Shown one piece after another: positions 19,764 through 63,840 of a DNA stretch of 64,000 bases. The translations under genes and the position numbers were made by a program. The DNA is taken from the sequence record OK040907; one strand, given 5' to 3'. Source of the DNA: Enterobacteria phage Ac3. The notes under the pieces were generated by a model. That model did no database searches and had not been told where the DNA came from. It saw nothing but the letters and a program-made list of their open reading frames with translations. Numbering within the stretch: the first letter of the stretch is position 1; every line of letters begins with the position of its first letter.

Positions 19764-21190
19764 TAAAATTTTAATTCATTTGCCAAAGCATCTAACTGAG
19801 CTCGAGCTGATTCATTTCTTTGATAGCGATTCTGTTCAGCCTGAATCTGTTGTGAACCTGCTACTTCACTCACTTCGGTTGGAGTAGAATCTTGTTCAAT
19901 TTCTACCCATTTTTGATTTCCTTTTTGAACACCCATCAAAAACTTATTCCACTTATTCTTATCACCATATCGTGATTTGATTTGCTTAATAAGTTGTTGT
20001 TCAGCAGCTGCTAGCTCCTCGGTTTCAATGACCGCAAGCATAAAATCAGCTGTTGCTGGAAGACCAGCAGATTCTGCAATATCGCTCATGTTAACATCGG
20101 AAGAGTCCCAAGCTTGTTTACCGACCTGTGCTGCAGTCCAAAGAACAGTTTCGGTTTCAACAGCCAGAGCACGCAATTCCTCTGCGATAGCTTTAACAGT
20201 TGTGTAACTATTTTCTGAATAAACTCTAATGCGGCAAGATTTACAAATACCTAGATAGTCGACAATAATGATTGTTGGAACAAAATTCTTTTTGAGCTTT
20301 AATTCATTTAAAAGTGATCGAAATGTATTAGCGTCTGCTCCACCAGTAGGATATTGCTTAACGATTAAACGACCAAGGGTAGATTTCTCACGCCATTTTT
20401 CCATTTTTCCTTTATATTCAGCGTAAGAAATATGCCCATCATCAATGTCATCAAGAGAAACATCAAGCATGTTAGCGTCAATACGCTTAGCACAGACTTC
20501 TTCTGCCATTTCCATGGAAATGTAAAGAACATTATGTCCGAGCTGTAAATAATCTGCTGCTAATGAACACAATCCTAATGATTTACCAACGTTAACGCCA
20601 GCCATTAAAACGTTCAGTGTTCCAGTTTCAGCTCCGCCTTTCGTAATTTTGTTTAGAATTCTGAGTTTAAATGGAACTTTACGAGCTTTATTCATATAAG
20701 ATAGCCAGCGTGCTTCGTAGTCATCCATCCAATCATGACCAACGTAGCTATCAAATGAAATTGATAATGCTTGACGCATGATGTCAGGAATAGCACCAAC
20801 ATCCGGCATTTTCTTATTTCGTTTTTCCGGAGGAAGCTCAGCATTAGTTTGAATTTCGATTATTTTAGACGTAGCATTAAACATCGCCCTTTGCTGAACA
20901 TATTTTTCTGTTTCTTTTACTAACCAGCTGTGGTCTTCTGGAGAATCGGCTAGTTTTGAAATAAGTGTTTTTACACCAGAATATTCCGTTTCAGTAAATG
21001 AACTATTTTCTAATGCAACATTTAACGCATTAATAGATGGAACGCTATGATACTCATTAACATGAGATTTAATTAATTTGAACGTATTTTTAGCTGGACC
21101 ACTTTCAAAATATTCTGAATCCATATATGGCCAAACTTTTGAAAAATAAGCTTGATCAAATATAAGATGAGAAAGAATAATTTCTACCAC
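19763..21190 (-). CDS. 41: replicative DNA helicase (DnaB-like)
   Basis: 475-aa ORF, Walker A GVNVGKS; matches T4 gp41 length. Confidence 0.9.
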   Translation of the reverse strand: MVEIILSHLIFDQAYFSKVWPYMDSEYFESGPAKNTFKLIKSHVNEYHSVPSINALNVALENSSFTETEYSGVKTLISKLADSPEDHSWLVKETEKYVQQRAMFNATSKIIEIQTNAELPPEKRNKKMPDVGAIPDIMRQALSISFDSYVGHDWMDDYEARWLSYMNKARKVPFKLRILNKITKGGAETGTLNVLMAGVNVGKSLGLCSLAADYLQLGHNVLYISMEMAEEVCAKRIDANMLDVSLDDIDDGHISYAEYKGKMEKWREKSTLGRLIVKQYPTGGADANTFRSLLNELKLKKNFVPTIIIVDYLGICKSCRIRVYSENSYTTVKAIAEELRALAVETETVLWTAAQVGKQAWDSSDVNMSDIAESAGLPATADFMLAVIETEELAAAEQQLIKQIKSRYGDKNKWNKFLMGVQKGNQKWVEIEQDSTPTEVSEVAGSQQIQAEQNRYQRNESARAQLDALANELKF

Positions 21191-31909: not shown

Positions 31910-31960
31910 AGTTCCTCCGTATAAATATGTTTATCACTCGCTGTATCAAAAGGATATGTT

Positions 31961-32674
31961 ATGAACTATAAACTGATCTACGAAAAACTGATCAGCAACG
32001 CCAAATCCCGTAAACTGGACTGTTACACCGAGTCTCATCACATTATCCCGCGCTGCCTGAATGGCTCCGATGACGCGAGCAACCTGGTAGACCTGACCCC
32101 TGAGGAACATTACGTTGCACACCAGCTCCTGGTTAAAATTTATCCGTCCGAGCCAAAACTGATTTACGCTGCCAACATGATGACTGTATCCACTAAATAT
32201 GCTAAACGCAATAACAAAACGTTCGGTTGGATCCGTCGCAAACTGTGGGAAATCGAAAAAAACAAAGAATTCTCTCAGGAAACCCGTAAGAAAATGTCCG
32301 ATGCGGTTGCCAACAAGGCGCGCCTGACCTGCCCGCACTGTGGTAAATCTGGCCTGTCTGGTAACATGAATCGTTGGCACTTCGATAATTGCCCGAACCA
32401 CCCGAATCCGAAAGTGCGTCCTCCGATGTCTAAAGAACACCGTAATAACATCAGCAACGGTCTGAAAGCAATTATCCTGGAGGAAACCTCTTGCGAATTC
32501 TGCGGTATGATCGGCAAGAAATGCGTGATTGCAGCTCACCGTAACTTCTGTAAGAAAAACCCGAACGGCCGTAAGAAAACCGAGAAAACCGGTACTTGCG
32601 TGCACTGCGGTAAAGTTACGACCTTTGGCAACCTGAGCCGTTGGCACAACGACAACTGCAAGCACAAACACTAA
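31961..32674 (+). CDS. HNH homing-endonuclease-like protein with C-terminal Cys-rich zinc-finger repeats; codon-optimised-looking
   Basis: 237-aa plus-strand ORF with ESHHIIPRCLNGSDDASNLVDLTPEEHYVAH motif; ctg/ccg/cgt codons; stop overlaps gene 46 stop (convergent). Confidence 0.65.
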   Translation: MNYKLIYEKLISNAKSRKLDCYTESHHIIPRCLNGSDDASNLVDLTPEEHYVAHQLLVKIYPSEPKLIYAANMMTVSTKYAKRNNKTFGWIRRKLWEIEKNKEFSQETRKKMSDAVANKARLTCPHCGKSGLSGNMNRWHFDNCPNHPNPKVRPPMSKEHRNNISNGLKAIILEETSCEFCGMIGKKCVIAAHRNFCKKNPNGRKKTEKTGTCVHCGKVTTFGNLSRWHNDNCKHKH

Positions 32675-34359
32675 TTGATCGTAGCAACGGAGAAACGACC
32701 CACTTTCTCCATTTTGATGTGCTGACCGTAGTCCTGTGGGTCGTGGTCTTTGTGGCTGATAATGAAAAAGTTAGTATCTTTCAGGCCATCGAGAATTTTA
32801 GCGACGTTTTTGATACCTTCGGCGTCGAACGCGCCATCGTACACTTCATCCAGGAACAGGCAAGAGATTTTTACACCAGAGACTTTTTCGGCGATGTCAC
32901 GCCAGGTGAACAGGAGGGCGATATCGATACGTGCCTTTTCGCCTTGGGAGAAGGATGCATAAGAGAAATCTTCGCGGCCGCGGGATTTGATAGTTTCGTT
33001 GAATTCCTCGTCCAGGGTGAAAACATAGTCCGCCTCCATAATTTTCAGATAATGGTTGATCTGTTTGTTGAACAGCGGGATGTATTTCTTAATGATCGCG
33101 CCCTTGATGCCGCTGTCTTTCAGCATGTCGGTCAGGATGCCACGGTGGTATTTTTCCATCACCAGGTTGGTTTTAGTCTTCACGATCTTATCCAGCTCTT
33201 CCTGCAGGAGGGCAATTTCGTCCGCGTGGTCAATGAATTCAGAGGAAGCTTTTTCAATGGCAGCTTTAACTTTCTTAGCTTTGTCAACCGTGGTAATCAG
33301 GGACTGTTTCTTGTTACGAATATCGTTCGCCAGAGACTGTTGGGTCTTAATGTTATCACGATATTCGTCCACCAGGACTTTCAGGTTATCGCGGTGGGTG
33401 GACAGTTGTTCAAAAGAGTGGGTGCATTCGCTCACCTTATCTTTAATTTTGCTCACAACTTTATCACCGCTGGACAGTTGAGACAGGCAGGTCGGACACA
33501 GACCGCCCTCGTGGTACATGTTGATAACTTTGTTGTAGCTATCGATTTTGGATTTAATCAGCACGGCCTCCTGGCCAATTTTGTTAAAAGCATCAGTAGG
33601 GTCTTCGTCCAGCACGATGTTGACCAGACGTTCATTCGCTTCCTCGATTTCGCTTTTCAGGGTACGAGCTTCTTTAGCCAGATCGTCGTACATGTTCTGC
33701 AGGCGCGTCAGGTTGTCACCGGTCAGTTTCTTCTGACGTTCTACGTTGTCGTTGTAGATCTTGATCTGTTGGATAATAGAGTCTTTCTTCACATCCAGTA
33801 CCTGGTTCTGAGAGTTCAGTTCACGGATCAGTGCTTTGTTCAGTTTGTCCATCTCCGCCAGGGTGCCAACCTCCAGGAGGTCTTCGACCAGCTTACGGCG
33901 TGCTGGAGTGCTCAGGCCCATGAACGGAGTGTAACCCGCAGTGCCGAGCACAACAATCTGCTTGAAGCTAGCGTAAGACATACCGATCAGCTGTTCGAAC
34001 TCGGCCTGAAAATCTTTGGAAGAGGCAGATTCGTTCAGACGGGTGCCGTTCACAGTGATTTCAAAGACGTTTGGTTTTTGACCGCGTTTGATGTAATATT
34101 TCTTTTCGTCATATTCCATCCACAGTTCTACCAGGAGTTCTTTCTTATTGGTGCTGTTGATCAGCTGGCCTTTCTTAACGTCGCGGAACGGTTTACCGAA
34201 GAGGCCGAAGGTAATAGCCTCCAGCATGGTAGATTTACCGCCACCGTTACGACCAGTGATCAGGGTTTTCTGAACTTTGTCCAGCTGGATATCAACGCCG
34301 TTCTGGCCTACGCTCATAATGTTCTTGTATTTAACACGGTTCAGTTTAAAGGATTTCAT
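32671..34359 (-). CDS. 46: recombination endonuclease subunit (SbcC/Rad50-like ATPase)
   Basis: 562-aa ORF, Walker A GRNGGGKST, coiled coil; protein is gp46-like but DNA is E. coli-optimised-looking. Confidence 0.85.
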   Translation of the reverse strand: MKSFKLNRVKYKNIMSVGQNGVDIQLDKVQKTLITGRNGGGKSTMLEAITFGLFGKPFRDVKKGQLINSTNKKELLVELWMEYDEKKYYIKRGQKPNVFEITVNGTRLNESASSKDFQAEFEQLIGMSYASFKQIVVLGTAGYTPFMGLSTPARRKLVEDLLEVGTLAEMDKLNKALIRELNSQNQVLDVKKDSIIQQIKIYNDNVERQKKLTGDNLTRLQNMYDDLAKEARTLKSEIEEANERLVNIVLDEDPTDAFNKIGQEAVLIKSKIDSYNKVINMYHEGGLCPTCLSQLSSGDKVVSKIKDKVSECTHSFEQLSTHRDNLKVLVDEYRDNIKTQQSLANDIRNKKQSLITTVDKAKKVKAAIEKASSEFIDHADEIALLQEELDKIVKTKTNLVMEKYHRGILTDMLKDSGIKGAIIKKYIPLFNKQINHYLKIMEADYVFTLDEEFNETIKSRGREDFSYASFSQGEKARIDIALLFTWRDIAEKVSGVKISCLFLDEVYDGAFDAEGIKNVAKILDGLKDTNFFIISHKDHDPQDYGQHIKMEKVGRFSVATIN

Positions 34360-34374
34360 TTTGTATCCAATTGT

Positions 34375-35225
34375 TTAGAGGCTAGAGAATTCTTTTACCA
34401 GGGCTTGCAGGCTAGCTTCGATCGGATAACCATTTTTCACCAGCATTTTACGGAACATCACGTGTTTAGGACGGTTATAGCTGATCCACAGTTCGTACAG
34501 TTTGTCTTTGTTGTCCCAGTGGTAACCTTTGCGACGGCTGGCAATGTGAGCCTTACGAATCTCCGGATTTTTCCAGCTTGCAGCGACAGAGTTGGAAATC
34601 GGCTTTTGATATTTTGAGACGGGCACAGCGGAGCGAAAGGCTTACGAGTGTTGAGTTTGGTGCGTTTCATGGTCAGACCGTTTGCCAGATGCCACTGGAA
34701 TTTCTGTTTAGTTTTGAAGTTATTCAGACGTTCTTTGTTATCCTTACGGTTTTTCGCTACGGAGAAGTATTTCAGTGCGCGTTCACGAGCTGCATTACGG
34801 TTCTGTGGGTTGGAGTAATACTGTTGCAGGCGTTTAGAAATGGTATCGGAAACATCCTGTTTGATAAAAGAGTATTCTGCCGCAATCAGATCAACTTCTG
34901 CCAGGCTGAGGTTTTTATAGGTTTTGCCAGACATCATACGATTCAGCGCGTTCAGCATTTTACCGTTTTTACCTTTTGCCAGGAGGAAGTGTGCTTTAAA
35001 GTGGTTAAAGTGGCTGAGGTTCACCAGGTTCCAGGTAGATTTGAGATATTCCGGGAAGATAGATTTCGGCAGCACGTGATGTGCTTCGGTCTTGCCCGGA
35101 GTCTTAACGGTGCTGTTAACGCTAATGAAGTTGATATAGGACTTAGCGTCTTCCTCAGACAGCGCCAGTTTTTCCACCAGTTCTTTGATCAGGAATTCAT
35201 CGTTGATGTCCAGTTTGAAGTTTTT
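34375..35225 (-). pseudogene. HNH endonuclease-like gene, disrupted (frameshift, no canonical start); codon-optimised-looking
   Basis: EAHHVLPKSIFPEY HNH motif in one frame (to about 34640); C-terminal part continues in another frame (34375-34626) after an in-frame TAA; no ATG upstream of the recoded N-terminal segment. Confidence 0.45.
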
Positions 35226-45817: not shown

Positions 45818-46138
45818 TTATAGCGTAATCCATTCTCGTACTGTCTGAGTTACTACACGTTCATGGGGCTCGACTAGTTCAACAGTCGGAACTGCATAAT
45901 ACCAGTCAGAATGATAAGAACCTGACCGAGATTCATTTACCGCTACATGTACATTATGTTTTGGACTAAAGTAAACACACTGACGATATTGACATTTACC
46001 ATCTTGCACCCAGTCTTCTATTTCGACAGGTTTAAGATAATCGGAAAAATCGAAATCATAGTTTTCCGAAAATGCATCATGGTCTTCAATGATTTCGCTC
46101 AGAACTGCATCAACATCTAATTTATTTTCAATAGTCAT
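45818..46138 (-). CDS. hypothetical protein
   Basis: 106-aa ORF. Confidence 0.5.
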   Translation of the reverse strand: MTIENKLDVDAVLSEIIEDHDAFSENYDFDFSDYLKPVEIEDWVQDGKCQYRQCVYFSPKHNVHVAVNESRSGSYHSDWYYAVPTVELVEPHERVVTQTVREWITL

Positions 46139-46148
46139 TTTTCACCAA

Positions 46149-46319
46149 TTAGTTGCGCAGCTTATTCAGTTCCTCGTCATCGATCCAAGACTCCAGACCG
46201 GACGGCAGAGCACATTCGATCTCCCACAGGAGTTCCTCAATTTTCTGCAGGCGATCCAGTTCCTCAGCCGGGATGGTCACCATGGACGGTGCACGGCTTA
46301 CGTTAATGTCATAGATCAT
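46149..46319 (-). CDS. small acidic protein with E. coli-optimised-looking codon usage
   Basis: 56-aa ORF below track cutoff (MIYDINVSRAPSMVTIPAEELDRLQKIEELLWEIECALPSGLESWIDDEELNKLRN); GC-rich island bounded by native genes. Confidence 0.5.
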   Translation of the reverse strand: MIYDINVSRAPSMVTIPAEELDRLQKIEELLWEIECALPSGLESWIDDEELNKLRN

Positions 46320-46321
46320 AT

Positions 46322-46537
46322 TTACCCCAATTTAACCATACAATCGCCGTATTTCCACTTAGAAATAGACTTTTCACCATTAGAATAATAAACTTCGAGT
46401 TTAGCACGATTATTTTTAATTTGAATAACCTTGGCTGTCATCAAAGTTCCATACCCATAATAAACTGCAACTTCATCACCTACATATACCGCGCTTCCGC
46501 GGTAATCATGAATATAGTCAGTTCCTTCGAGCATCAT
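46322..46537 (-). CDS. small hypothetical protein
   Basis: 71-aa ORF. Confidence 0.5.
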   Translation of the reverse strand: MMLEGTDYIHDYRGSAVYVGDEVAVYYGYGTLMTAKVIQIKNNRAKLEVYYSNGEKSISKWKYGDCMVKLG

Positions 46538-54587: not shown

Positions 54588-54616
54588 AACTTTGTGAAAA
54601 ATTTTTGAAATAAAAA

Positions 54617-54636
54617 AGGGAGCCCGAAGGCTCCCT
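54617..54636 (-). terminator. hairpin with UUCG tetraloop 3' of the nucleotidyltransferase gene
   Basis: plus agggagcc-cgaa-ggctccct. Confidence 0.5.
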
Positions 54637-54637
54637 A

Positions 54638-55648
54638 TTACTTATAGTAGGAGCGGTGGTTCTCCAGGTAAACTTTTTCCAGAAAGTCATCCCAGAAACC
54701 CATGTCAACCTTTTGCTGCATGCCATTCTTGGATGCTTCCGTGCTCGCAGCCTCCACCTGATCAACTACGTCCTCGAGGAATTCCTGCACGGTTTTGAAC
54801 GGGTGCTTGCCCAGTTTGACATCCAGGATAAACGGCGCATCCTGCAGTGGGTAGATCAGGTCGCCGGTTTTGTAAATTTCCAGGAGCTGCAGGCCACCGC
54901 GGCATGCATGGGACAGAGCTTTCCAGTCGATGCCTTCGTTTGCCTCTGCTTTGCGGGCGCGTTCGCCGTATTCAGCATCCAGTTTATTCAGGGATTGTTT
55001 CAGTTCGATCAGGCTCAGGGTAGTCTGATATTTACGACCCAGCACCGTATAGAAAGTTTGCGGGCCGGTTTTTTCGTGGTTGTGAAACACCCATTCACAG
55101 AATTCGTTTTCCGGCAGGCGGTGTTTGATATCTTCGATTTTGGTACGGCGTTGACCCTGAGTGCCGTCTTCGCGATAAACGTTGCGCTGGTCCGGGATCT
55201 GATTCACGACTTTCAGGACGTCGCGCAGAGCGGCCAGACGGGAGCCCTTAACACCATATTTAGAGGCTTGTTTGCGTACATAGCCCAGGTAAGATTTCAT
55301 ATTGGTAGTGTAGAAGCGGCTGCGGTTGTCCTGAATGAATTTCCAAACGTCAGGCAGATCGCTCTTAACCACCAGTTCTGGCGGCGTATGCAGCATGTCG
55401 AGTGCCACGGTCTCACCGTCCGCAGCCAGTTTGAAAAAATACTTGAGGCTATACAGTTCGTGGTCGATGTCATCTTTGGTATTCTTGCTAGAGGTATTGT
55501 TGGTGTTTTTAGACATGTGTTCTTTCACGTTGCCGATCAGAATGTCACGTGCCGGTGGCACGAAGATCTCTTTGAAGTCGACATCGCTTTCCGGGGTGGA
55601 AGTGCCGTACAGGTGGCTGCCAAAGTAGGATTTCATCACAGTCTTCAT
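54638..55648 (-). CDS. Pol-beta-superfamily nucleotidyltransferase-like protein; codon-optimised-looking
   Basis: 336-aa ORF with N-terminal GS-x11-DVD motif (YFGSHLYGTSTPESDVDF) and candidate third acidic residue in ALDMLH; ctg/ccg/cgt-rich DNA. Confidence 0.55.
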   Translation of the reverse strand: MKTVMKSYFGSHLYGTSTPESDVDFKEIFVPPARDILIGNVKEHMSKNTNNTSSKNTKDDIDHELYSLKYFFKLAADGETVALDMLHTPPELVVKSDLPDVWKFIQDNRSRFYTTNMKSYLGYVRKQASKYGVKGSRLAALRDVLKVVNQIPDQRNVYREDGTQGQRRTKIEDIKHRLPENEFCEWVFHNHEKTGPQTFYTVLGRKYQTTLSLIELKQSLNKLDAEYGERARKAEANEGIDWKALSHACRGGLQLLEIYKTGDLIYPLQDAPFILDVKLGKHPFKTVQEFLEDVVDQVEAASTEASKNGMQQKVDMGFWDDFLEKVYLENHRSYYK

Positions 55649-56109
55649 TATTCAGCTTTGTATTCGATCACCGGACACACTTTCGCTTTGCGCGCTTTCA
55701 GGAACTCAACAATGATAGATTTCTTCGGTTGGATTGGCGGCAGGCCTTTGTAAGCGCGATCGATGTTTTCAACGTGCAGCGCGTAATCTTTCTTCCATTT
55801 GTAGTCTTTGTATTTCTCACGCAGGTGCGCCGGAATCACGAAGGAGCCGATAATCAGGAGAACCACCAGGAGTGCCAGAATGAACGCGGATGGCAGGAGG
55901 GTCCACAGGCTACCGAAGATCAGCCAGCGCTGCAGGGATTCAGCACAGATAATAGTCAGACCAACCAGGATGGCACAACCGAAGATGGAAACGAAAAACG
56001 TCGGGATGGCGATAGACCAGAAGTACGCGCACAGGGTTTTAGGGCGCTGCCACTCGTCGTTAAACAGTTTGAACAGCTTATAGTGCCAAGAGTTTTCATT
56101 AATGATCAT
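55648..56109 (-). CDS. two-transmembrane-helix membrane protein; codon-optimised-looking
   Basis: 153-aa ORF with two long hydrophobic segments; TAATG overlap with the nucleotidyltransferase gene; native RBS upstream. Confidence 0.55.
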   Translation of the reverse strand: MIINENSWHYKLFKLFNDEWQRPKTLCAYFWSIAIPTFFVSIFGCAILVGLTIICAESLQRWLIFGSLWTLLPSAFILALLVVLLIIGSFVIPAHLREKYKDYKWKKDYALHVENIDRAYKGLPPIQPKKSIIVEFLKARKAKVCPVIEYKAE

Positions 56110-60083: not shown

Positions 60084-60514
60084 TTATTTCGGTTTACCTT
60101 CCTTCACGAAGTCTGGGTACGGATAAAAGCCAGAGTAGAAACCTTCGCCTTTGTGGTTGATACAACCTTTGTTGGAACAATAGCACCAGTAATCGAAATC
60201 GCAAGCCATTTCGTCGTTGCACAGGGCGAAAACGACCGGCCATTTACATTTTTCACAGTGCGCGTTTTTCAGGATGGAAGTCTGGGATACCGCCAGGTGA
60301 CTTTCAGGCAGTATTCCTCCACATGCTGTTTGCGACCTTTCTTGTCGATGAAGGTGTATTCAACGAAGGTACCGATGTAATCTTTATCCACGTCGTGCGG
60401 AGAGTTGATCGGGCACTTAGTACGGCAGATGCGTTCCCACTGACGAATGATTACAGCCTTGTTTTTCGGGTCGAACGGGTGTGGATAATGTACTTTTACA
60501 GCAGCGGCTCCCAA
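60084..60514 (-). pseudogene. Cys-rich protein gene split across two reading frames; codon-optimised-looking
   Basis: frame A (TTG start in track) has protein-like sequence to about 60300; frame B continues with HCEKCKWPVVFALCNDEMACDFDYWCYCSNKGCINHKGEG... to a TAA at 60084-60086; no ATG. Confidence 0.4.
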
Positions 60515-60963
60515 TCAACGATTACGATTTCCAGTTTGGAAGAATAGGTGTCCAGGATACCTTCAATGATGTCCCAGTTGCCTTTACCGATGCCGGCGCC
60601 GATGCGCGGCATGTAGATGGTTGGTTTGATCAGTTTGTTTTCACCGAATTCGTTCAGCTCCAGCATACAATTCATCAGCGCAGAATATTCAAAGTTTGGG
60701 CCCGGCTGGAACTGAGTGTACAGGTTAAAACAGTACGCTTTGTGGGTGCGAAAGTACTTTTCATACACGGAGTAGCTACCCAGTTTAGTCACGTCGCCCC
60801 ATTCGGTCTGCAGCTTGTCAGCTTCCAGGATTTTCGGAAACGCTTTGGTCAGCTGACCGGCTACACCCGCTTTCATGGTATGGAAGCAGTTACAGCCGTG
60901 AGCGATGTTTTTACCTTCGGCAAACAGCGCTACGATATCGCCTTTGATGTATTTGACAATCAT
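60496..60963 (-). CDS. macro-domain protein (Poa1p-like ADP-ribose-1''-phosphate phosphatase family); codon-optimised-looking
   Basis: 155-aa ORF with IAHGCNCFHTMKAGVAGQL and YMPRIGAGIGKGNWD motifs resembling Poa1p; ATGA overlap with upstream native gene. Confidence 0.55.
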   Translation of the reverse strand: MIVKYIKGDIVALFAEGKNIAHGCNCFHTMKAGVAGQLTKAFPKILEADKLQTEWGDVTKLGSYSVYEKYFRTHKAYCFNLYTQFQPGPNFEYSALMNCMLELNEFGENKLIKPTIYMPRIGAGIGKGNWDIIEGILDTYSSKLEIVIVDWEPLL

Positions 60964-61301
60964 CTAGTACTCAATCCTCGATTATAAGAATCTACCAAAC
61001 GGTCAACCATTGAATGACAAGCGGCTTTATCTTTCTCCTCCGCAACTGAACATTCTAAAGTATTCCACTTTTTAGCATATCGTTTTAATAATGTATCGTT
61101 TTTGTATCTGCTTGATTTATCTCTTTCTCCGTCTTTGTATGCATATATTAATTTCTGTGCAAATTCAGCTTGGCATGCTTTATTTTTCCCACAATAATCT
61201 GCCGCAGTGCGGTTTACATACTCTCTAATTTCAGTATATGATGTATCTGCTAACGCAGAAAATGAAATTAATCCTATACATAAAACCAAAATTTTAGTCA
61301 T
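60960..61301 (-). CDS. secreted hypothetical protein
   Basis: 113-aa ORF with signal peptide MTKILVLCIGLISFSALA and four Cys. Confidence 0.5.
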   Translation of the reverse strand: MTKILVLCIGLISFSALADTSYTEIREYVNRTAADYCGKNKACQAEFAQKLIYAYKDGERDKSSRYKNDTLLKRYAKKWNTLECSVAEEKDKAACHSMVDRLVDSYNRGLSTR

Positions 61302-62688: not shown

Positions 62689-62963
62689 ATACTAGCTTCT
62701 TTGAGTTTAGACTTGGCCTTTTGAATGCAGTCAATAGAATTCATAGCTTCATCTAACTTAGAGTCTGACACTTCTTCATTTCCACCTAATGTGCTGTAGA
62801 TTTCAATATACTCGTCTTCTAAAGCCTTTAAAATAAGTCCTAAACGAACTTCAGCGTCTTTGATAGCATTCACTTTACCGATTTTCTCTTCAGTATGCGG
62901 CTTATAACCTTTAATGTCTTCAATCATATTTGACTTCCTCACCAGTACATAAATCATATTCAA
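62646..62963 (-). CDS. hypothetical protein
   Basis: 105-aa ORF. Confidence 0.5.
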
Positions 62964-63141
62964 CTAAACGAATAGGTTCATGAATGCCATATCCTTGAAC
63001 AGAAATTTCTGTCGTAGGATAAATTCCATCAATATCACCCATATTCCAGGCTTCATTAAATTGCTGTTCGCCTGAATTACTAAACCACTCGGCGAAAGCA
63101 TTTAGCACATCTTTAGAACCTTCAATAATTATCTTTGCCAT
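62920..63141 (-). CDS. small hypothetical protein
   Basis: 73-aa ORF. Confidence 0.45.
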   Translation of the reverse strand: MAKIIIEGSKDVLNAFAEWFSNSGEQQFNEAWNMGDIDGIYPTTEISVQGYGIHEPIRLVEYDLCTGEEVKYD

Positions 63142-63503
63142 TACAAACTCTCAGTAAAGGTACGAGCGATAACGTCGCGCTGCTGTTCCGGAGTCAGAGA
63201 GTTAAAGCGAACTGCATAACCGGATACACGGATGGTCAGCTGCGGATATTTTTCCGGATGCTTAACTGCATCTTCCAGAGTTTCACGACGCAGAACGTTA
63301 ACGTTCAGGTGTTGACCACCTTCAATTTTAACTGTAGGTTGTGTTTCAATTTCAATTTCACGGGCATGCAAACCGTAGAAAATTTCTGGGTCTACAAAAG
63401 AGTCCTCTTTAAAGGTTTTAGAGACAATAATTCGTGCTTGAATACCATCTTCAAAATAAATAGTACCTTTATGTGTGCCTTCAAGAATTTGATATGCTTT
63501 CAT
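63141..63503 (-). CDS. autonomous glycyl radical cofactor (GrcA/YfiD-like)
   Basis: 120-aa ORF; C-terminal [61 protein letters not shown] matches E. coli GrcA from memory, with E. coli-like codons; N-terminal half is AT-rich. Confidence 0.75.
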
Positions 63504-63510
63504 ATAAACC

Positions 63511-63840
63511 TCAATTAGAAAATAAATTTATCCAAGATTGTTCTTTAATTAAAAATGGCTCAGAATCATATGCCATTAAACTTTGGGTGATTAGTCCTTT
63601 AAAAGGTCCATCAATAAATTCCATGGTAAAATATGGAATTTTATTCATTAACTGCGCGTTAGGAGCAGTGCACAAAACTCTGCATCCTTTGAATACGCCT
63701 TTTTGTAATTTGTATTGCTTGGGATAAAATTCGCTCAAAATGTTATTATTTGCCAAAATTTCAAAATGATTCACCAATTTATTTTTAATAGTTTTTGGCG
63801 AAAAATAAAGATATTCGAAAAGCTGTGTGTCTGTCATCAT
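63511..63840 (-). CDS. hypothetical protein
   Basis: 109-aa ORF. Confidence 0.5.

Follow-up and report, generated by a model that had tools for sequence, protein, structure and literature searches.

The closest described relatives of the gene treated here are two small proteins that act as spare parts for pyruvate formate-lyase (PFL). According to PMC8683613, which refers to Wagner et al. 2001, Y06I of phage T4 and YfiD (GrcA) of Escherichia coli are the only two PFL spare parts validated biochemically; the PFL-activating enzyme installs a glycyl radical in each of them, and each returns activity to oxygen-cleaved pyruvate formate-lyase. In this study, we analysed gene vs.6 in a stretch of 64,000 nucleotides from Enterobacteria phage Ac3 (sequence record OK040907), referred to as the window throughout, where it occupies positions 63141–63503 of the minus strand as an unbroken open reading frame (ORF) of 120 codons plus a TAA stop, with an ATG start, in the ORF list of the window. 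Its 363 nt are 100% identical to vs.6 of phage RB51 (YP_002854079.1, annotated GrcA) with equal coordinates, and "RB51" (also RB68) in the comparisons below stands for the vs.6 copy in this window. From this identity, a Pfam Gly_radical match and the structure PDB 6OWR, we could confirm the ORF as gene vs.6, the ortholog of T4 Y06I and a glycyl-radical spare part of the GrcA/YfiD type. We consider it very probable that vs.6 is an old phage gene of which the 3′ half was overwritten by gene conversion with the chromosomal grcA of E. coli, in RB51, in T4 and in nearly all Tequatrovirus and Mosigvirus phages.

Like E. coli GrcA, the vs.6 product is a small stand-alone protein; its 60 C-terminal residues are identical, including the RVSGYAV motif, its N-terminal part is detectably homologous, and its biochemical role would be the one reported for T4 Y06I in PMC8683613. 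However, it is 7 residues shorter, its N-terminal half is diverged and AT-rich, and its gene lies in a string of phage early-region genes and not between ung and eamB, as grcA does in the one E. coli locus examined.

For host–phage exchange inside a gene the precedent comes from cyanophages, in which intragenic recombination between host and phage copies of psbA and psbD was reportedly described by Zeidner and colleagues in 2005. In T4-like cyanophages these are host-derived metabolic genes of patchy G+C content, with segments exchanged between host and phage (Sullivan et al. 2006, PMC1484495). vs.6 resembles them in being an intragenic host–phage mosaic, in which one segment is far closer to the host at synonymous sites. 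It differs in that it holds a single, sharply bounded block that is 100% identical to a living host allele, in that enterobacterial hosts and classical, host-DNA-degrading T-even phages are involved, and in that the same boundary is found in three genera with host-specific content. A laboratory counterpart is T4 marker rescue, or plasmid–phage recombination, by which short cloned homologies are copied into T4 by the phage recombination system; chromosomal grcA would act in the same manner, with the difference that the donor would in this case be a single-copy locus occurring naturally on the chromosome. As a rule, T-even phages, which break down the chromosome of their host, are considered to have hardly any nucleotide sequence in common with it. 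The gene, its annotation and its biochemical role were already known, as was host–phage intragenic recombination from cyanophage psbA/psbD; vs.6 stands out by its unusually clean mosaic signature and by the evidence for recurrence in three genera. No description of a nucleotide-level vs.6 mosaic in T-even phages was found in the searchable literature, although an earlier mention elsewhere is possible.

The host-identical tract and its boundaries

Pairwise alignment with E. coli grcA revealed a perfect run of 175 nt over gene nt 179–353 (window 63151–63325), the part that encodes the glycyl radical domain. The run gives way to a short tail (63141–63150; base 3 of codon 118, codons 119–120 and the stop) with synonymous differences at gene nt 354, 357 and 358 in the last three sense codons (GAG AGT TTG against GAA AGC CTG in E. 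coli), and the flanks on both sides are unrelated. Over gene nt 179–363 the identity to chromosomal grcA is 98.4% in all 5,426 complete E. coli genomes, which is the elevated 3′ identity that an earlier note on this DNA, made from the letters alone, had expected. Of 30 E. coli genomes taken at even spacing, 13 contain the 175-nt tract without any difference (roughly 40%, also as an estimate for the 5,426), and an identity of 99% or more is reached in 5,156 of the 5,426. The phage-type 5′ segment (gene nt 1–178, window 63326–63503; codons 1–59 and base 1 of codon 60), in contrast, has no match in any of the 5,426 genomes and agrees with E. coli grcA at 68 of 178 positions in an end-anchored ungapped comparison. 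Base composition changes across the junction as well: GC is 33.1% in the 5′ segment and 49.1% in the tract, at a window mean of 35.7%, and GC at third codon positions (GC3) is 0.19 versus 0.42.

At the protein level, residues E61–L120 are identical to E. coli GrcA and 56 of 57 codons in this part are shared, while BLASTP gives 74 identities in 100 positions from residue 22 onward, mostly from the C-terminal 60 residues. The earlier note is borne out in its description of a C-terminal match of about 60 residues written in E. coli-like codons, of an AT-rich and phage-like N-terminal half, which is conserved across phage genera, and of a mosaic between a phage Y06I-type gene and host grcA, whose junction proves sharp; its host-like interval of 63141–63320 was right to about 10 nt at each end. 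The N-terminus is not foreign to GrcA, however. The N-terminal part aligns weakly to GrcA from residues 20–22 (QARIIVSK versus EARCIVAK) in BLASTP and profile searches, and judged by these alignments the 5′ half is a diverged homolog of the GrcA N-terminus. We are therefore dealing with gene conversion between homologs and not with unrelated parts that were fused. The note had thought a mosaic incompatible with uniform identity to a phage homolog; such identity does occur in T4 (~5 differences in 363 nt) and refutes nothing, T4 having the same mosaic.

With the 64 kb divided into three pieces, megablast against all 5,426 E. coli genomes returned window 63137–63325 as its sole match, with none for window 1–42900 and none for the other GC-rich stretches of the window. 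The note's statement that host-derived GC-rich patches can exist here holds for this tract; its extension to other GC-rich stretches does not, since the tract, as the sole E. coli-like stretch, is uninformative on their origin. At the sensitivity of megablast, they are therefore not recent E. coli imports. Further 175-nt windows with a GC content of at least 49% lie at 31956–34710, 54611–56100, 60181–60970 (overlapping tk.3/tk.4/vs), 46121–46365 and 20001–20175.

Identity of this kind could be imagined without any recombination, if the whole gene had come from a host long ago and its 3′ half had been held by selection on the domain or its codons while the 5′ half drifted. The extreme conservation of the C-terminal domain in all lineages would suit such a history: the glycyl radical domain protein is near-invariant in Jiaodavirus, Slopekvirus, Pseudotevenvirus, Winklervirus, Krischvirus, T5-like phages and contigs of IMG/VR, and in nine further phage lineages the residues are the same, or almost so, at 64–85% nucleotide identity to E. 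coli (the set without the tract, in this range over the block, comprises L098–L102, Virsaitis27, Taquito, KP27, Krischvirus and T5-like phages). However, selection on the protein leaves synonymous sites free. Enterobacter phage Taquito has 57 of 57 residues as in E. coli but 32 of 57 codons (~56%), E. coli-infecting Krischvirus and T5-like phages have 20–26 codons in common with E. coli, and the control lineages overall 20–33; GC3 in the block of tract-less relatives is 0.2–0.3. With the control rate of p = 0.56 per codon, 58 identical codons would arise by chance at ~2e-15. The transition is moreover abrupt, and the tract is identical to a current E. coli allele and specific to this species: over the block, E. 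coli is 92.4% identical to Citrobacter amalonaticus and 98.8% to the cryptic Escherichia clade, which identifies E. coli itself as the donor and makes the copy a recent one when measured against the divergence of the enterobacteria. By these comparisons, the identity of the tract goes beyond what protein constraint or codon convergence would leave, and a history without recombination is exceedingly improbable.

The 5′ half tells of a longer residence in phages. Its start, MKAYQILEG..., is kept in Jiaodavirus, Slopekvirus and Pseudotevenvirus, reads MNAYQILNG in Winklervirus and is found in part in T5-like phages; since T4-like genera have kept this half in common, phages must have possessed the gene for long, and it is the 3′ tract alone that is young. 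vs.6 is also among the few ORFs of unknown genetic function that Nolan et al. (PMC1524935) found conserved throughout their comparison of six T4-like genomes. One 19-kb contig (L120, IMGVR_UViG_2706794630_000006) carries a full-length bacterial-type GrcA (MITGIQITK...), with a block 91% identical to grcA of Yersinia artesiana, and looks like host or prophage-flanking DNA and not like a phage vs.6.

Shared junction and host-specific content among phages

E. coli grcA with its flanks, searched against 50,697 phage records, matched 752, and ~645 Tequatrovirus/Mosigvirus records, including T4, T2, RB69 and RB32, have this tract and this junction. Of 60 rows sampled evenly from the 752 records, 59 were full-length matches, and in 59 of 59 the match starts at one host position (query 299/300, once 305), which corresponds to phage gene nt 179. 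This common start holds in Tequatrovirus, in Mosigvirus (RB69, PHB12) and, at 85–89% identity, in Jiaodavirus phages of Klebsiella. A perfect 175-nt identity to the propagation host would on its own resemble contamination by host DNA or host reads assembled into the phage genome. An artefact of this kind is hard to reconcile with one junction in ~645 independently sequenced phages, with a continuous frame and phage-specific variants both inside and at the end of the tract, and with the fact that the T4 protein was expressed and characterised, as stated in PMC8683613; we give it next to no credence.

The comparison of RB51 with RB69 bears on how two genera came to share the tract. Their flanking genes are 69% (vs.7) and 71% (vs.5) identical and the 5′ halves of vs.6 90.4% (17 differences), compared with 98.9% (2 differences) in the tract, where both have the E. 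coli sequence apart from private changes. The vs.4 genes of the two phages are likewise ~70% identical. The nearest genus-specific marker lies 8 nt from the junction, and a transfer of the tract alone from phage to phage between the genera therefore needs a crossover inside these 8 nt, whereas a host donor gives the boundary automatically, because host–phage homology begins at the junction. This bears on a more economical history, in which the host sequence entered phages once and everything else is phage–phage recombination and mutation with no further host input. T-even phages recombine freely, and a common junction is what single ancestry would produce; on the other hand, E. coli sequence in tracts of both genera, set between flanks of 69–71% and beside a 5′ half of 90%, would have had to pass through that narrow interval.

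Variation inside the tract provides a further test of the number of host contributions. The common E. coli allele (SK1144-type) and a minority allele (O157:H7 TR01-type) differ at gene nt 204 (T/A), 285 (T/A) and 336 (C/T), of which nt 285 is the third base of the Gly95 codon (window 63219); ~270 genomes fall in a band of 95–99% identity to the RB51 tract in which the O157:H7-type allele also lies. The SK1144-type base is present at all three sites in RB51, T4 and the Mosigviruses. The Tequatroviruses IME537, PD112, Killian and EcNP1 have the O157-type base at all three, with 5′ halves 1–5 nt from RB51, and KIT03 (A/T/C) and HY01/PEC04 (A/A/C) form nested intermediates. Some O157-isolated phages are among those with O157-type variants, PEC04 at 2 of the 3 sites and KIT03 at 1. 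That three of six phage variants coincide with the three host differences in both site and base has a chance of ~1e-7, and the phage gene pool must therefore have received no fewer than two host alleles, at odds with a single entry. The variants G183, C288 and A324 are without E. coli counterpart.

Tract ends vary as well. At nt 354/357/358, five of the eight possible haplotypes occur among the 19 phage sequences of the allele analysis (RB51 G,T,T; T4 A,T,T; L094 G,T,C; L095 G,C,T; OES_C-2 G,C,C; with A,C,C in E. coli), a shuffling more easily understood from tract ends that vary, or from patchy repair, than from simple descent. T4 has GAA at codon 118, as in E. coli, against GAG in RB51. Retention of the tail codons as ribosome-binding site of vs.5 (GAGAG upstream of its ATG) was considered and rejected, as T4 has GAA and the sites are shuffled among phages. 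In Escherichia phage OES_C-2 (L176:523–885) nt 357 and 358 of the tail agree with E. coli, so that a sole mismatch to E. coli remains over 185 nt (99.5%); its 5′ half has a 6-nt deletion in the GAAATTGAAATTGAA repeat (EIEIE to EIE).

In Jiaodavirus the tract has a different content. Klebsiella grcA DNA was obtained by protein search and contig look-up, and 84 host sequences were compared. Over vs.6 nt 179–305, the Klebsiella sequence matches at 122 of 127 positions in phage KpV477 and 124 of 127 in L117 (96–98%) and is the best of the 84, with a median of 107–108 and 108–109 for E. coli; outside the tract the agreement is 64/178 over nt 1–178 and 41–42/48 over nt 306–353. In an earlier sample of 80 host grcA loci, before the Klebsiella sequences were added, the Jiaodavirus block had reached only 91%. 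The left boundary is the same as that of RB51, the 3′ block (KpV477 L005:501–863; L117) has a GC3 of 0.63 versus 0.23 in the 5′ part, and the encoded residues are of Klebsiella type (LLDAVEH versus LEDAVKH in E. coli). Slopekvirus KP27, a Klebsiella phage, and Taquito served as negative controls and showed no Klebsiella-type tract in the same comparison. A T4-like contig (L112:601–1005, IMGVR_UViG_3300008607_000007) encodes a GrcA homolog with a Pasteurellaceae-like N-terminus, of which the 3′ ~80 nt are near-identical to grcA of Haemophilus parainfluenzae type, with an exact run of 56 nt; its siblings L110 and L113–L115 have many more differences there. L112 may hold a fourth, independent host-derived tract.

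The junction common to Tequatrovirus and Mosigvirus, the O157-type allele and the Klebsiella-type tract of Jiaodavirus together suggest, at the level of sequence, that the overwriting was recurrent and host-specific. For the single conversion with later phage–phage exchange there remain, besides free recombination and the common junction, the series KIT03 / HY01 / IME537, which looks like crossovers between two tract variants, and the phage-only G183; the allele coincidences, the 8-nt interval and a Jiaodavirus tract of Klebsiella and not of E. coli type stand opposed to it, and we judge it unlikely.

With regard to direction, we infer transfer from host to phage, because the tract is host-like in composition, because grcA is present in all E. 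coli genomes and has full-length homologs across Enterobacterales and Pasteurellaceae (81–100% protein identity), and because the block is AT-rich in other phages. The reverse, in which E. coli received the grcA 3′ half or the O157-type allele from phages, could appeal to the two-way exchange claimed for cyanophage psbA (PMC1484495), and shared polymorphism by itself gives no direction. The GC3 of the tract, far above that of the phage part and of the tract-less relatives, speaks against it, as do the presence of grcA in 5,426 of 5,426 E. coli genomes, the occurrence of A204 also in the cryptic Escherichia clade and in Salmonella, and the normal death of T-even-infected cells. Such a reverse transfer is highly improbable.

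Several points weigh against conversion by host grcA as laid out here. Recombination is read from comparison of sequences and not from experiment, and its direction from composition and host phylogeny and not from direct demonstration. The allele analysis covers 19 phage sequences, taken from ranked match lists, out of ~650. G183 accompanies the O157-type A204 in every phage that has it but is found in none of the complete E. coli genomes; at least part of that haplotype must therefore be of phage origin or stem from a donor outside the sample. No E. coli allele identical to the HY01 tract was found among the complete genomes (best 98.9%), and a metagenome scan with a specific 35-mer gave 0 matches to a bacterial donor for the IME537-type tract. 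The nested intermediates could stem from phage–phage recombination rather than from repeated host input. The Jiaodavirus match remains at 96–98% and decays after nt 305, the exact donor not being found among the 84 hosts. Finally, the tract is absent from Krischvirus and T5-like phages with E. coli hosts and from Slopekvirus KP27 on Klebsiella; with tract-less lineages on the same hosts, conversion is therefore not universal.

The vs.6 product and its gene neighbourhood

The vs.6 product matches Pfam PF01228 (Gly_radical) over residues 60–101 with 67.2 bits at a cut-off of 22.2, and its nearest solved structure is YfiD (PDB 6OWR, E = 4.6e-42). The RVSGYAV motif occupies residues 92–98 and contains Gly95 (GGT codon, window 63219–63221), the predicted glycyl radical site from sequence and from alignment with G102 of E. 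coli GrcA; its PflB counterpart is G734 (PMC8683613). Membership in GrcA/YfiD (TIGR04365, IPR011140) was judged by a stand-alone protein of ~14 kDa, and with 120 residues the product aligns only to the last 63 residues of PflB structures, without the catalytic barrel. Identity as a pyruvate formate-lyase, a protein of ~750 residues at full length, was rejected, with 89.2 bits against a TIGR01255 cut-off of 994.2 and coverage of profile positions 680–744 only, and the label "pyruvate formate-lyase" in some phage records overstates the match. Other labels found in records for vs.6 are 2-ketobutyrate formate-lyase, acetyltransferase and glycerol dehydratase.

The assignment to GrcA itself calls for two reservations of the same kind as those above. 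On the NCBIfam equivalog profile TIGR04365 (GrcA), which aligns residues 20–120, the product scores 154.6 bits, below the cut-off of 170 and compared with 233.9 for E. coli GrcA, because its N-terminal half has diverged; RefSeq labels it autonomous glycyl radical cofactor GrcA despite this score. Direct biochemistry, in turn, was performed on T4 Y06I, and its extension to the RB51 product would follow from orthology, with 2 of 120 residues differing. By curated sequence criteria, the vs.6 product is GrcA-like, just outside the equivalog, and by analogy to its T4 ortholog it would work as GrcA. T4 vs.6 (L003:4558–4920) carries a CGT-to-CAT change at gene nt 218, R73H, inside the host tract, and also differs at residue 54 (P54 versus T54); the studied Y06I therefore deviates from the E. 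coli radical domain by one residue and RB51 does not.

vs.6 lies within a tight same-strand string, vs.8-vs.7-vs.6-vs.5-vs.4-vs.3-regB, which is probably co-transcribed and in which stop and start signals overlap. The vs.6 stop (63141–63143) and the vs.5 start (63139–63141) overlap in TAATG (minus strand, 63139–63143), from ORF coordinates and the RB51 annotation, and a putative Shine-Dalgarno-like GAGG (minus strand, 63509–63512), found by pattern match 5 nt upstream of the vs.6 ATG, overlaps the TGA stop of vs.7. A scan for promoter- or terminator-like sites adjoining vs.6 gave none above background. An antisense ORF at 63135–63518 on the plus strand is without support and was taken as a by-product of the coding strand. 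The T4 ortholog, annotated autonomous glycyl radical cofactor GrcA, sits at the equivalent place between vs.7 and vs.5. vs.5 (window 62920–63141) measures 222 nt in RB51 against 177 nt in T4 (L003:4382–4558).

A proposed route of conversion and its implications

We propose a model in which the phage recombination system would use grcA fragments of the degraded host chromosome to overwrite the part of vs.6 that is homologous to them. The T4 proteins involved would be UvsX/UvsY with gp46/47, in a process comparable to the rescue of markers from plasmids in the laboratory. On the left, the tract ends where host–phage homology begins, and on the right within the last three codons. The first conversion would have had to cross an identity of ~80%, with runs of 20–35 nt; once an identical tract was present, later conversions by any host allele would become easier, so that the process could reinforce itself and the tract would track the host gene. 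Whether vs.6 is in such continuing concerted evolution with the host chromosome, its tract being re-copied from the grcA of each host and recording the recent host allele, be it of E. coli K-12 type, of E. coli O157 type or of Klebsiella, we consider an evenly balanced question.

At the protein level, conversion would be near-neutral, because tract-less lineages encode the same residues, and we take the nucleotide identity to have come about through recombination and not through selection; an improved codon usage may be a benefit of the tract. Functionally, the product would be activated by the host PFL-activating enzyme, dock on oxygen-cleaved host PFL and restore its activity. With a phage N-terminal half joined to a host-identical radical domain that carries Gly95, the domain would have to be compatible with PflA, the activase of the host, as well as with the core of cleaved PflB. 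For the phage, the presumed benefit would be that fermentation through PFL continues during infection when oxygen in the gut is low.

For those who annotate phage genomes or filter contamination, vs.6 is a warning that a perfect host match in a phage genome can be genuine, and the recent host of a phage isolate may be inferable from a single amplicon. The pair vs.6/grcA offers a concrete and cheap locus for assaying host-to-phage recombination. These gut phages maintain a repair part for an oxygen-sensitive fermentation enzyme of their host, and 175 nt of current E. coli sequence within a conserved phage gene point to strictly lytic T-even phages recombining with the host chromosome. If the concerted evolution considered above holds true, the vs.6 tract would show in nature, allele by allele, both the passage of host sequence by recombination into phages that are strictly lytic and destroy the DNA of their host, and which hosts these phages met recently.

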